This document shows, in pieces, positions 42,127-46,109 of a DNA stretch of 64,000 nucleotides. How positions within the stretch are numbered: position 1 is the stretch's first letter; every line of letters begins with the position of its first letter. Both the position numbers and the translations under genes were made by a program. Origin of the DNA: a virus; the IMG/VR virus record IMGVR_UViG_3300023179_000041, positions 32,001 through 96,000 of that record. One strand, 5' to 3'. The notes below the pieces were generated by a model. That model saw only the letters and a program-made list of their open reading frames with translations. It had not been told where the DNA came from and searched no databases.

Positions 42127-42149
42127 ATACTTGTTCTATACTTGTCCGC

Positions 42150-43469
42150 ATGTCGGACAACATTCAAGTAAATACAGAGATAGTTGAAATCACCAGTCTT
42201 AAGCCATACCCAAAGAACCCGCGTCGCGGTGATGTTGAGGCAATCGCACAATCACTCAAAGTGAATGGACAGTACAAACCAATCGTCGTGAATAAGCGCG
42301 ACAACACCATTCTTGCCGGTAACCACACATGGAGAGCGGCACGAAGCCTGGGCTGGACACACATTGCAGTTTCGTTTGTCGATGTAGACGATTACGGTGC
42401 GCAAAAAATTGTTCTGGCTGACAATCGCACGTCCGATATGTCTTCCTATGACGATTCAAAACTCCTTGACCTTCTGCAATCGTTGTCGACGCTTGATGGA
42501 ACAGGATTCCAGCAGGTTGACATCGACCAACTTGAAGCACTAATTAGCGGAGACGGAGAATTTGAAGCGCCTAACCGAGATAGAACCGGCGCGGTTGGCA
42601 AGGAAATTCGTGTATGTGTTGGAAGTTACAGAATTCTTGTTGATGACGATGTTTACTCTGATTGGGCAAATGATATTGCTACAAAAGTTGGAGATGATGA
42701 CAAGGTTCTAGTCGAACTCAAGAAGCGTTTACGTCTTTCAGATGTAACTCATTTACCACCAGAAAAAACAAAGCCAAAGCGACAAAAACGAAATATCGAC
42801 AGGCAGCAAATGCACTCTGTGATGCTTTCTACGGAAAATGTCGACATCAATAGCGTCTTCCCATACCCGCTCAATGCACGACAGGGCGATATCGGCCTGA
42901 TTGCTGAATCTTTAAGCAAGAACGGTCAGTTCCGGCCAATTGTTGTCAACAAACGGGACAATTCAATCTTGGTTGGTAATCACACGTGGAAGGCAGCCAA
43001 GATGTTGGGGTGGAAACAAATTGCGGCAACCTTTGTTGATTGCGATGAGGAGGAGGCAGCAAAGATTGTTCTTGTGGACAACAAGACTGCAGACCTTGGG
43101 TCTTATGACCATGTTGAACTAGCAGAAATTCTTCAAACACTTCCAGTGTTTGACGGAACCGGATATACAGGAGATGACTTAGACGACCTGATGCATGAGG
43201 TCGCCGGTTGGGGTATCAAAGAAAAACCAGTCAAAGAAAAGAACGATAAGCCCAGAAACGTTACGGCGATTATCGGAAAGTGGGAGTTCAAGATGGCGCC
43301 TAACTTTTATGAAGATTGGGAAGAGGCAATGTTTGTTGAGTTCGGATACTCATATGAAGAGGTTTGCGCTGGAATTGTTGGTCTTTTGGACATTCAAAAC
43401 GATGCATGGGTTTCTACCCGTCAGCGACGTTCAAAGAAGGTCAGCCCGCGTAGGGCAAACGGAGAATAA
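42150..43469 (+). CDS. Tandem-duplicated ParB/sulfiredoxin-N domain protein
   Basis: Two copies of YP.N.R.GD...IA.SL..NGQ..PIVVNKRDN.IL.GNHTW.AA..LGW...IVL.DN. Confidence 0.85.
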   Translation: MSDNIQVNTEIVEITSLKPYPKNPRRGDVEAIAQSLKVNGQYKPIVVNKRDNTILAGNHTWRAARSLGWTHIAVSFVDVDDYGAQKIVLADNRTSDMSSYDDSKLLDLLQSLSTLDGTGFQQVDIDQLEALISGDGEFEAPNRDRTGAVGKEIRVCVGSYRILVDDDVYSDWANDIATKVGDDDKVLVELKKRLRLSDVTHLPPEKTKPKRQKRNIDRQQMHSVMLSTENVDINSVFPYPLNARQGDIGLIAESLSKNGQFRPIVVNKRDNSILVGNHTWKAAKMLGWKQIAATFVDCDEEEAAKIVLVDNKTADLGSYDHVELAEILQTLPVFDGTGYTGDDLDDLMHEVAGWGIKEKPVKEKNDKPRNVTAIIGKWEFKMAPNFYEDWEEAMFVEFGYSYEEVCAGIVGLLDIQNDAWVSTRQRRSKKVSPRRANGE

Positions 43470-45016
43470 TGAAGCCCGTTCTTGCATCAGTAACAGACTT
43501 AAGGCCATCTGCATACAATCCGCGCAAAGCGGATGCAGAGAGGCTTGAGTTGGTTGAATTATCGCTGCGCAAGTTCGGTTGGCTATTACCTATCTACGCA
43601 GACAAGGATGGCGAGATTCTCAGTGGTCACCAGCGCCACATGGTCGCCACAAATATGGGAGCCACGATGGTCCCCGTCGTGCGTGTTCCTTCGTTCAAGA
43701 TTGAGCGACGCATGGGCATCAACGTCCTTTATAACCGTGCTACGAACGACATGTACAAAACTCGTTCAACCACAGAACTCAAAGATGACCTAATGGCAAA
43801 ACTTGGAGACCTTGAGAAAATCAAGATGCTCCCAGACATCCCTGTTGATTCTCTAGAATGGTATCCAGTACTTAAGACCAAGCCGGTTTCCACTCTTAGG
43901 CTCATACAACTGAACGGAAAATGGCCGGAACAGCACGCAGTTGCTATGGCAGCGCAGTTAAAAACTAACGGGCTTCCCCAGATGCCGGTCATCTGCACCA
44001 CTGACTACAAGGTTCTCAATGGCCTTGCCAGGCTGACATACGCAGTGTCAGTAAATGAAGACTTTGTTCAGACCGTACAGGTAGCGCCAGACATTGCCGA
44101 AGAGGTAACAGCAATGCTGAACCTTCTGACGATGGATTACAACATTCAAGAACGATATGAAGACCTGCTTCGATACAACTCGTTTCGTCGAAAAAACCAA
44201 CGGGTTCAGATTCTCACACCAACATTCTTGGAAGATTTTCTCCGCCACTTCATTAACTCTGGCAATCGTAACGGCGCCTTTGAACTCGATAACCCGCGCC
44301 ATGTAGAACTATGGAAAGAGTATTACGGCACTCACGTCATTGACTTTGGTGCTGGTCTATGCGACAAGACTCAGATTCTCCGAAACATGGGAGTGGATGC
44401 AGTTGAATTTGAGCCTTTCTTCCTTGCCAAAGACAACGAAACAATCGATACGGACGCCGCTCGCGAACTTACGTCAAAATTCCTTGCCCGCGTTGCGGAC
44501 GGTACGGAGTGGGACAGTATCTTTATCGCTTCGGTATTCAACAGCATCCCATTCCTGCAAGACCGCAAACACGTGATTGCCATTGTCGCTTCCTTGTCGT
44601 CCCCACATACAAAACTCCACACAGCCGCTATATGCACGGAATCAGACCGTTGGTTCAATCACACTCGCGGAGATTTAAAGAAGGGACACGACACGTCAAG
44701 CAACGGATTTGCCCTTGATTACGAGCCACGCATCATCATCTCCGATATCGCTCTAAAGCCAAAGGTCCAGAAGTACCATACCGAAACCGAGTTCAGCGAA
44801 CTCATTAGGCACGGCTACCGGCATGTAGATACGTTCTTGACCGCCAAAAACGGGCTTGTTCAAGCCGTTGGTTCCAATGCCCGACAAATTGGGGTCGACG
44901 AACTACGTGTTGCAATTGAGTTTGAGTTCAATGTCCCACATCCAGAAGGCCGTCGTCTTGGAATGGTGGAGGAAGCAAAAGCGGCGTTTTCCAAGAGGCT
45001 TGGGATTCAATTATGA
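43469..45016 (+). CDS. ParB-N domain(s) fused to SAM-dependent transferase domain
   Basis: YNPRK...ILSGHQRH ParB domain; degenerate second ParB (VLNGLARL); C-terminal VIDFGAG...EFEPFF...WDSIFIASVFNS. Confidence 0.75.
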   Translation: MKPVLASVTDLRPSAYNPRKADAERLELVELSLRKFGWLLPIYADKDGEILSGHQRHMVATNMGATMVPVVRVPSFKIERRMGINVLYNRATNDMYKTRSTTELKDDLMAKLGDLEKIKMLPDIPVDSLEWYPVLKTKPVSTLRLIQLNGKWPEQHAVAMAAQLKTNGLPQMPVICTTDYKVLNGLARLTYAVSVNEDFVQTVQVAPDIAEEVTAMLNLLTMDYNIQERYEDLLRYNSFRRKNQRVQILTPTFLEDFLRHFINSGNRNGAFELDNPRHVELWKEYYGTHVIDFGAGLCDKTQILRNMGVDAVEFEPFFLAKDNETIDTDAARELTSKFLARVADGTEWDSIFIASVFNSIPFLQDRKHVIAIVASLSSPHTKLHTAAICTESDRWFNHTRGDLKKGHDTSSNGFALDYEPRIIISDIALKPKVQKYHTETEFSELIRHGYRHVDTFLTAKNGLVQAVGSNARQIGVDELRVAIEFEFNVPHPEGRRLGMVEEAKAAFSKRLGIQL

Positions 45017-45732
45017 GGGACAAAGACAACTACAAACCAAGTGGCAAATGGACATTTGATGAGGGTGTCACGAAGGTATTTGAAGACATGATTTCCAGGT
45101 CAATTCCTGGATATCAAACAATGCGCGATTCTGTCGTCCGAGTGGCTACGCCAATTTTGTGCGCCGCAAACGTATCAAACTTTTTGGATGTTGGCTGCAG
45201 CCGTGGTGAAACTATCTATCAAATCCTTAACGCTCTTCCTACTGACATCCCCGCGACTGCTGTTGGTGTCGACTCCAGCCAGCCCATGATTGATGCTGCT
45301 GCTGAACTTTTTGGGAACTTTGACAATGTTCGATTTGTTTGTGCGGATGTCAGCGATATCGAGATAAGGCCCTTCGAATATTCGCTTATTACGTCGGTAC
45401 TCACCGCGCAATTCATTCCTCTTGATGTCCGCCAAAATTTCTATCAACAGGTGCATAATGGTTTGTCCTTAAATGGGGCGTTTATTATCGTCGAAAAGAT
45501 ACTTGGCGAGACTCCACTTTGTCAGGATTTGCTGGTTGACATTTATCACACTTTTAAAGCCGACAACGGTTATACGCACGAACAGATAGAAGAGAAGCGG
45601 AAGTCACTTCAGGGAGTTTTGGTTCCGCTTCGTGGTTCGGAAAATGAAAAAATGCTCAAAGATGCCGGCTTTATAAATGTTCAGCGTTTCTGGCAATGCC
45701 TGAACTTTGCTGGTTGGGTGGCATTCAAATGA
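45013..45732 (+). CDS. cmoA: CmoA-like carboxy-S-adenosylmethionine synthase
   Basis: WTFDEGV..VF.DMI.RSIPGY, LDVGCS.G, GY....I..KR..L, AGF.....WQCLNF match E. coli CmoA, including the Arg199-equivalent. Confidence 0.8.
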   Translation: MRDKDNYKPSGKWTFDEGVTKVFEDMISRSIPGYQTMRDSVVRVATPILCAANVSNFLDVGCSRGETIYQILNALPTDIPATAVGVDSSQPMIDAAAELFGNFDNVRFVCADVSDIEIRPFEYSLITSVLTAQFIPLDVRQNFYQQVHNGLSLNGAFIIVEKILGETPLCQDLLVDIYHTFKADNGYTHEQIEEKRKSLQGVLVPLRGSENEKMLKDAGFINVQRFWQCLNFAGWVAFK

Positions 45733-46109
45733 AAAAGCAGGACAAGAAAGTCCATGTTCTTGAAGTTTGGGGCGAAATGTGGACCTCCAATAAAGAACGA
45801 ACACTCCATCATTTCACGCGCGCCAAGAAGGTCAAGGAGTGGCGTGAAGCAGCATGTGTGTCTGCCATTGCCCGCAAGATTCCCAAGATGAAAGCAATCG
45901 AGGTCCGCTTCATCCCCCATCGGGTGAACAAACGGGGCCTAGCAGATACTGGTGGGCACTTCCCGGTAGCAAAGGCCATGATTGACGGTTTGGTTGACGC
46001 CGGCATCCTTACTGGCGATGGACCGGATACTGTGCGTAGACTTATATTCGAAGCACCGATTATTTCTGGCGAAAGCAAAGCAGTAATCGAAATCACCGAG
46101 TTGGAGTAG
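45729..46109 (+). CDS. RusA-like Holliday junction resolvase
   Basis: D......KAMIDGLVDAGILTGD....V motif. Confidence 0.7.
   Translation: MKKQDKKVHVLEVWGEMWTSNKERTLHHFTRAKKVKEWREAACVSAIARKIPKMKAIEVRFIPHRVNKRGLADTGGHFPVAKAMIDGLVDAGILTGDGPDTVRRLIFEAPIISGESKAVIEITELE

Follow-up and report, generated by a model that had tools for sequence, protein, structure and literature searches.

Within a 64,000-nucleotide stretch of viral DNA (the window, bases 32001-96000 of the 106,278-base IMG/VR virus record IMGVR_UViG_3300023179_000041, which is estimated to be 79% complete) three overlapping genes were found that may represent a phage module for nucleic-acid modification based on carboxy-S-adenosylmethionine (carboxy-SAM or Cx-SAM). 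Its core would be gene 3, which encodes a homologue of the carboxy-SAM synthase CmoA, and gene 2, which encodes a candidate carboxymethyltransferase fused to ParB domains. We hold this reading tentatively and give it slightly less than an even chance. It is supported by the intact motifs of gene 2 for binding of S-adenosylmethionine (SAM), the confidently predicted fold of its product, the linkage of both genes, the homology of gene 3 with CmoA, the absence of a rival consumer of the cofactor, the small, closed family of the transferase domain with its ParB-N fusion, the position of the module before terminase and portal genes in other lineages and the precedent of Synechococcus phage S-B43. 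A preliminary description, made from the letters of the sequence alone, had reported three genes coupled by TAATG and ATGA overlaps at 42150-45732, and reading frames and junctions are exactly as it gave them (TAATG at 43467-43471 between genes 1 and 2, ATGA at 45013-45016 between genes 2 and 3). The confirmed genes and the parts of gene 2 are the following:

42150-43469, plus strand: gene 1, tandem ParB-N protein of 439 amino acids, two repeats of ParB-N plus an extension of about 80 residues
43469-45016, plus strand: gene 2, ParB-fused protein of 515 amino acids
43469-43753, plus strand: gene 2 residues 1-95, ParB-N domain with the boxes YNPRK, SGHQRH and NRATND
43865-44128, plus strand: gene 2 residues ~133-220, second, degenerate ParB-N-like domain with NGLAR in place of GxxR
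44141-45016, plus strand: gene 2 residues 225-515, class I (Rossmann) methyltransferase-fold domain, candidate carboxymethyltransferase
45013-45732, plus strand: gene 3, putative CmoA-like carboxy-SAM synthase of 239 amino acids, with R196 at the position of E. coli Arg199

Linkage and distribution

The linkage of the fusion gene with a CmoA-like gene is near-universal. In a sample of 80 IMG/VR loci with a relative of gene 2 (40-94% identity) a CmoA-like gene is located on the same strand, 0-2.8 kb 3' of the gene 2 homologue, in all 72 loci that have at least 1.6 kb of downstream sequence; the remaining eight have less than 720 bases there. A separate collection of bacterial sequences and metagenome-assembled genomes (MAGs) contained 65 loci with 2.5 kb or more of downstream sequence, and 62 of these have a CmoA-like gene (in L156 it lies upstream). 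Co-occurrence in other genomes, which the preliminary description had named as a check of its proposal, is borne out by these counts. Stop and start codons of the two genes often overlap, and a ParB gene is found 5' of the fusion gene in most related loci that have upstream sequence. Relatives are encoded in 410 viral and 153 bacterial or MAG stretches from many phyla; the bacterial and MAG carriers belong to Actinomycetota, Alphaproteobacteria, Verrucomicrobiota, Cyanobacteria, Chloroflexota, Bacteroidota, Clostridia and Bilophila. Even for the most divergent partner genes (about 225 amino acids, missed by tblastn) the best NCBIfam family is still CmoA, and a profile built from the partner genes alone matches E. 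coli CmoA (8e-61) and the CmoA of phage S-B43 (SpCmoA, 6e-45).

Three cultured phages carry the module, namely Gordonia phage Evaa, Pseudomonas phage SM1 and Aeromonas phage HJ05, and their partner genes match the CmoA profile. In Evaa, where the module is located directly 5' of the terminase, gp1 is ParB-like, gp2 is a "ParB-N-terminal-like domain methyltransferase" and gp5 is CmoA-like. The corresponding genes are gp051-053 in SM1 and its Samunavirus relatives and gp2 and gp3 in HJ05. A search of the literature on DNA modification in Samunavirus or PaMx31-type phages found nothing relevant.

Other lineages have the module directly 5' of terminase and portal genes. These terminase-adjacent lineages possess a conserved open reading frame (ORF) of 140-160 amino acids without Pfam match between the fusion gene and the CmoA-like gene (L038:2520-2942, with equivalents in L025, L029, L046 and others), which is absent from the window, where the two genes overlap.

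The CmoA-like protein

Judged from its sequence gene 3 is a CmoA homologue, and its product is predicted to synthesize Cx-SAM. By far its best NCBIfam family is CmoA (TIGR00740, 1.6e-47, 162.2 bits), although the curated equivalog cut-off of this family (193.3 bits) is missed. SpCmoA, for which the formation of Cx-SAM was shown biochemically (PMC12783734), reaches 115.6 bits on the same model and hence scores lower than gene 3. The cut-off is tuned to bacterial proteins and uninformative for phage proteins. Homology to solved CmoA proteins extends over the full length, with 1im8 (H. influenzae YecO, 7.9e-35, residues 11-239) and 4gek (E. coli CmoA, 1.1e-27) as matches. The alignment with E. 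coli CmoA runs from end to end with 30% identity in 232 columns, and K195-R196 of gene 3 align with K198-R199, in accordance with the preliminary description, which had seen an end-to-end CmoA with the equivalent of Arg199.

Arg-199 is the sole CmoA residue in contact with the carboxylate of Cx-SAM (PMC4482062). SpCmoA (L168:3462-4157) has Glu in this column (Lys-Glu-Lys) and is active; therefore Arg is not strictly required for activity, and conservation of this carboxylate contact does not extend to active phage enzymes. Among 60 distinct partner genes, that of the window included, the column is occupied by Arg in 32, by Glu in 21 and by Ala in seven, while Lys198 is invariant. The use of Arg199 as a strict discriminator of true CmoA proteins was rejected, as the proven SpCmoA carries Glu.

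The ParB domains of genes 1 and 2

The preliminary description had characterized gene 2 as a ParB-fused Rossmann transferase devoid of the Pro-Cys motif of C5-cytosine methylases, and both the motifs and the predicted fold agree with this; a second, degenerate ParB-like domain has to be added. By Pfam gene 2 shows a sub-threshold ParB_N match alone (17.3 bits), and it falls into PHROG 5475 of unknown function (7.7e-88). Its AlphaFold2 model, based on 41 homologues (mean predicted local distance difference test score, pLDDT, 89.5; predicted template modelling score, pTM, 0.85), comprises a ParB-N domain, the degenerate ParB-like domain and a class I methyltransferase domain. The three boxes of the first domain are variants of the ParB box types, and the box residues are invariant in the 41 sequences. 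The family profile matches Noc and Spo0J (6.6e-06), and in the structural search with VIA this domain resembles ParB bound to CDP or CTPgS (Z 11.5, root-mean-square deviation (rmsd) 1.7 Å, 93 residues). By family profile and model it thus shows the fold and boxes I-III of PF02195. In the degenerate domain the order of secondary-structure elements in the model is the same as in domain 1, and there is weak internal similarity between the two (27% over 49 amino acids, E 0.004).

Gene 1 contains two ParB_N domains (Pfam 2.4e-17, 63.2 bits) with the fold and box residues of PF02195 and matches the ParB-like PHROG 8071/723 (1e-95). By comparison of its two halves, which share 44% identity over 178 residues (E 2e-55), it is an internal tandem duplication. 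Genes 1 and 2 together thus encode three ParB-N domains and one degenerate ParB-like domain. Their ParB parts match PHROG 498 (2.2e-56 and 6e-19, respectively).

The methyltransferase domain of gene 2

The Rossmann methyltransferase domain itself covers approximately residues 225-476 and is followed by a conserved C-terminal helix. Gene 2 contains the segments DFGAG, EFEPFF and IFIASVFNSIPF. Invariant in its family are D292-F-G-A-G296, F314-E-P316, N358-S-x-P-F362, D365-R366, Y418-E419 and P431-K-x-Q434, furthermore R235 and R240, and K435 (of PKVQK) is nearly invariant. DFGAG represents motif I, FEP includes the acidic residue after strand 2, and NSxPF..DR follows strand 4. With DFGAG and FEP invariant and Z values of 10-13.7 to more than 50 class I enzymes, the domain has the class I SAM-dependent methyltransferase fold.

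Two VIA structural searches, one re-ranking Foldseek matches and the other independent of Foldseek, were evaluated with their 50 best rows each. In both searches all of these 50 neighbours belong to the Methyltransf_11/12/23 type and act on small molecules, peptides or tRNA, which places the modelled domain in this group. The nearest solved folds, all within about two Z units, include the following (VIA against the gene 2 methyltransferase domain):

METTL6: Z 12.7-13.7
Mycobacterium tuberculosis heterocyclic-toxin methyltransferase Rv0560c: Z 12.6
ToxA-type N-methyltransferase (B. thailandensis, 5ufm): Z 11.8-12.2
glycine N-methyltransferase (GNMT): Z up to 12.0
CcbJ: Z 11.4-11.6
Trm9: Z 11.1-11.3

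The protein-atlas neighbours of the domain are generic Methyltransf_23 clusters. DNA methylases (solved DNA amino-methyltransferases among them), CmoA and CmoB do not occur among the best 50 rows of either search, which is an absence from these lists and no exclusion.

A Pro-Cys motif is lacking in gene 2, whose three Cys residues all vary within the family. Therefore the Cys-dependent C5 route is excluded, and on the residues present the chemistry of gene 2 cannot be that of C5-cytosine methylases. The preliminary description had proposed an amino-methyltransferase-like enzyme acting on N6 of adenine or N4 of cytosine and had suggested structure prediction of 43469-45016 as a check of its class. 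This part of the proposal is not supported. The sequence after strand 4 reads SVFNSIPF, without a PP dipeptide and without the (D/N/S)PP(Y/F/W) motif IV of amino-methyltransferases, PF01555 is not matched, and the structural neighbours point to the small-molecule/tRNA type. NSxPF occupies the position of the post-strand-4 'LHHxPD' loop of small-molecule methyltransferases.

A search of 1.84 billion proteins with the methyltransferase domain alone yielded 289 representatives (E ≤ 0.001), the majority of which comprise about 500 amino acids and carry this domain at the C-terminus, as in the ParB fusion. Judging from this search it is a small, closed family. In one member (P0265, 891 amino acids) the ParB and methyltransferase parts are separated by an insert of the LAGLIDADG_3 homing-endonuclease type, which looks like an intein or a nested endonuclease.

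Other possible consumers of the cofactor

In the 106-kb record no match was found to PF00145 (C5 methylases), PF08003 (CmoB), PF00733 (CmoY-type) or PF01555 (N6/N4 methylases), and control genomes gave matches. With no rival consumer in the record, gene 2 is therefore the likely user of carboxy-SAM. A phmmer search with the CmoX of phage S-B43 (SpCmoX) gave no match among the window ORFs. When SpCmoX, SpCmoY and E. coli CmoB (EcCmoB) were used against 160 loci, six C5 methylases were the only matches and no CmoX signature was detected. These six methylases belong to one lineage and are of the ordinary Dcm type with GYPCQ and Gly-Asn in motif X, whereas CmoX has SPPC and Arg350. They are found at L025:4721-5716, L027:4721-5716, L042:62-1006, L087:2717-3688, L088:2710-3705 and L090:2638-3582. 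The Dcm-type methylase lies about 3 kb 5' of the module, and some carriers thus combine the module with conventional cytosine methylation.

Comparison with known systems

A literature search revealed CmoA-CmoX-CmoY of Synechococcus phage S-B43 as the sole natural phage Cx-SAM system. It produces 5-carboxymethylcytosine (5cxmC) and its glycine amide (Yang et al., Nat Commun 2025, PMC12783734), 5cxmC being made by CmoA and CmoX (PMC12783734). The statement in the preliminary description that phage CmoA had been published with a C5-type partner is correct. The authors of that study also noted ParBc proteins nearby and reported no candidates for N6-adenine or N4-cytosine carboxymethyltransferases linked to CmoA (PMC12783734). 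As in S-B43, a CmoA homologue encoded by a phage that lacks CmoB adjoins a gene with methyltransferase fold, and proteins with ParB domains are frequent neighbours; gene 3 and SpCmoA share 29.5% identity over 224 aligned positions. The transferases differ, however. S-B43 CmoX is a C5-cytosine methylase with SPPC and with Arg350 in motif X, whereas gene 2 is unrelated and possesses neither PF00145 nor the C5 fold, SPPC, a conserved Cys or motif X with its Arg350. Moreover, no AsnB-type ligase corresponding to CmoY occurs in the window's record, and here enzyme and ParB domains form a single fusion protein. The module would thus follow the cofactor logic of the S-B43 system with an unrelated transferase.

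The E. coli pair cmoA-cmoB (b1870/b1871), which serves the formation of 5-carboxymethoxyuridine (cmo5U) in tRNA (PMC4482062), likewise combines a CmoA homologue with a class I methyltransferase-fold transferase in an operon with overlapping frames, and gene 3 keeps the equivalent of Arg199 as bacterial CmoA does. In contrast with E. coli, the gene order is reversed in the window, and gene 2 carries ParB domains instead of the N-terminal tRNA-binding domain of CmoB. Gene 2 was considered as a CmoB homologue and rejected. It does not match PF08003 and shows no homology that would include Lys91, Tyr200 and Arg315 of CmoB; hhalign of its family against EcCmoB gave a probability of 6.9%, with an alignment in the Rossmann core alone (motif I to strand 4).

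Fusions with ParB-N are typical of phage DNA methylases (PHROG 498; PMC12783734), and gene 2 resembles these enzymes (PHROG 498; CDD cd16402 ParB_N_like_MT, annotated on Pseudomonas phage SM1 gp051) in having ParB-N at the N-terminal side of a methyltransferase. The enzymes of PHROG 498 and cd16402 possess a canonical N6/N4 or C5 catalytic domain, whereas gene 2 has the Methyltransf_23-like domain of its closed family. With METTL6 and the Methyltransf_11-12-23 group it shares the fold (7ezg, Z 13.7, rmsd 3.6, 193 residues; Rv0560c 7bgg, Z 12.6), but identity is 9-15%, and numerous unrelated enzymes score within a single Z unit of one another. The model thus suggests a common fold class, from which neither family membership nor a substrate can be inferred.

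Proposed mechanism and its alternatives

According to the preferred reading the product of gene 3 would convert SAM and host prephenate to carboxy-SAM, and the C-terminal domain of gene 2 would catalyse a direct SN2 transfer in which a nucleophile of the substrate takes over the carboxymethyl group. The two ParB-type domains of gene 2 and the tandem-ParB product of gene 1 would bring the enzyme onto phage DNA. The expected product is a carboxymethylated base other than 5-carboxymethylcytosine that would protect phage DNA from host nucleases. DNA as target, the modified atom and the role of ParB domains as 'loaders', which the preliminary description had put forward as well, are presumptive, as are the consumption of Cx-SAM by gene 2 and the anti-restriction function.

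A more far-reaching version is conceivable, although we rather doubt it. Gene 2 would then represent a second, independently evolved class of natural DNA carboxymethyltransferases that originated from the small-molecule/tRNA clade and not from DNA methylases, creates a carboxymethylated base so far not known as an enzymatic product in DNA, with the mark on a nitrogen (in the ring or exocyclic) or an oxygen instead of cytosine C5, and is spread along DNA by ParB-type nucleotide-gated clamps. Currently two natural consumers of carboxy-SAM are known, namely CmoB acting on tRNA and, since 2025, CmoX acting on C5 of cytosine in phage DNA. The module is thus a candidate for the non-CmoX type of DNA carboxymethyltransferase that the authors of the CmoX study did not find. 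In the literature N6-carboxymethyl-dA and N4-carboxymethyl-dC were encountered in reports of chemical damage only, with no natural enzymatic origin found. If true, the proposal would enlarge the anti-restriction chemistry of phages by a new enzyme class and a new modified base in DNA, assign a testable role to ParB-N domains fused to modification enzymes and provide a natural enzyme by which carboxyl handles could be placed on DNA elsewhere than at C5. With the three cultured phages it is testable now.

Several points weigh against the preferred reading. The fusion with ParB-N and the analogy with S-B43 are the sole grounds on which DNA is suggested as target. The nearest folds are those of small-molecule, peptide and tRNA methyltransferases (METTL6, Trm9), with DNA methylases not among them, the hhalign probability for gene 2 versus CmoB is 7%, and the genome carries a tRNA-Thr(UGU). 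The incompleteness of the record means that gene absences there are no proof. No residue of gene 2 can be assigned to carboxylate recognition; candidates for such contacts would be R235, R240, N358, R366, K432 and K435. Position 300 was examined by covariation, since it is Lys where the partner is of the Arg type and Glu where the partner is of the Glu or Ala type. This K300/E300 charge swap is the sole position that tracks the partner type, and it fails in the L032/L033/L037 lineage, which pairs Glu300 with an Arg-type partner; the pattern was therefore rejected as phylogenetic. Finally, three loci carry the fusion gene with no CmoA-like gene within 6 kb, namely L146 (a Pseudomonadota MAG), L101 (a Puniceicoccales MAG) and L091 (an unclassified bacterium MAG). 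The cofactor might come here from the cmoA of the host or from a phage copy at a distance. In the phyla of L146 and L101 there are bacteria that possess cmoA and cmoB themselves (PMC4482062). In L146 the slot 5' of the terminase genes is empty.

Among the alternatives an ordinary SAM-dependent methyltransferase survives best, though we regard it as unlikely. The CmoA-like protein would then act separately, either as a drain of host SAM in anti-defence or as a plain methyltransferase. SAM-binding motifs cannot tell SAM from Cx-SAM, no carboxylate-binding residue was identified in gene 2, CmoB can use SAM too (PMC4482062), depletion of SAM by CmoA was raised as a possibility by the S-B43 authors (PMC12783734), and the three loci without linked CmoA-like gene would fit. 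Two unrelated functions are, however, hardly compatible with a linkage that holds in all 72 viral and in 62 of 65 bacterial or MAG loci with enough downstream sequence, across many phyla and often with overlapping codons. Furthermore, the partner is always CmoA-like and never belongs to another methyltransferase family, and in L146 and L101 host cmoA/cmoB could supply the cofactor.

Still less probable, in our estimation, is a target in RNA or among free nucleotides. In this case gene 2 would be a functional CmoB analogue that carboxymethylates RNA, for instance the wobble uridine of tRNA including the phage tRNA-Thr(UGU), or nucleotides bound in the ParB pocket. The preliminary description had stated that neither a CmoB-like gene nor a tRNA is visible in the stretch. 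No PF08003 match occurs in the record and no tRNA gene was found within the window, but the record does contain a single tRNA gene, tRNA-Thr(UGU), at G000:C1:4003-4076, about 28 kb before the window start. This tRNA species carries a cmo5U-type wobble base in some bacteria. The 105-kb close relative G001 also has one tRNA-Thr(UGU); such a gene is likewise located at L082:1500-1572. Additional arguments for such a target are METTL6 and Trm9 among the top structural neighbours, the role of bacterial CmoA in tRNA modification (PMC4482062) and the binding of nucleotides by ParB-N folds (the above VIA matches to ParB with CDP or CTPgS). On the other hand, hhalign hardly connects the family with E. 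coli CmoB, the Z scores of the tRNA enzymes are tied with those of many small-molecule enzymes, and the module is also carried by the complete 49-kb relative G004 (with terminal repeats) and two other relatives that have no tRNA gene. In addition, a ParB-N fusion and a location next to genes of replication or packaging are characteristic of phage enzymes directed at DNA.

That the transferase modifies a protein or small molecule (a ParB partner, a packaging protein or a metabolite) and no nucleic acid at all is improbable, since the exclusively small-molecule, peptide and tRNA enzymes among the 50 best fold matches and the generic Methyltransf_23 clusters of the atlas are opposed by the ParB-type domains of the adjacent genes, which point to DNA or nucleotides, and by the known natural Cx-SAM acceptors, which are nucleic acids only (PMC4482062, PMC12783734).

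Genomic setting and promoter

Two further features flank or precede the module:

42137-42142, plus strand: TATACT, -10-like hexamer read from the sequence, 7 nt 5' of the gene 1 ATG (42150)
45729-46109, plus strand: RusA-like resolvase gene (PHROG 34 RusA-like, 5.6e-10)

A setting in the replication module had been described before and is in line with the neighbouring genes: upstream, a gene for a minor tail protein is followed by an O-like replication-initiator gene, and RusA-like and WhiB-like genes lie downstream. The RusA-like ORF, for which the ORF lister gave 45696 as start, has an in-frame ATG at 45729 that forms a third ATGA overlap, with the stop of gene 3; therefore translational coupling may reach beyond the three genes and include the resolvase as a fourth one. 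The resolvase is not shown to be part of the modification function.

The preliminary description had also proposed a leaderless promoter with TATACT 7 nt before the ATG at 42150. The position of the hexamer is as described and no Shine-Dalgarno sequence lies between it and this ATG, but a sigma-70 consensus promoter scan found no match at the site. Promoter-like and terminator-like sites across the operon region are no commoner than in shuffled sequence. A comparison of the window with 12 relatives shows the arrangement cTATACT-N7-ATG in nine of the 13 sequences despite diverged flanks, and in the remaining four the hexamer is located further upstream and followed by a Shine-Dalgarno-type leader. 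As a candidate promoter for a leaderless transcript of gene 1, TATACT is plausible but unproven. A megablast search of the operon against 50,697 phage records gave no near-identical record. As assembled contigs, and with no RNA run among those listed, the stretch, whole or in part, is present in 13 sequencing runs from five freshwater/lake studies.

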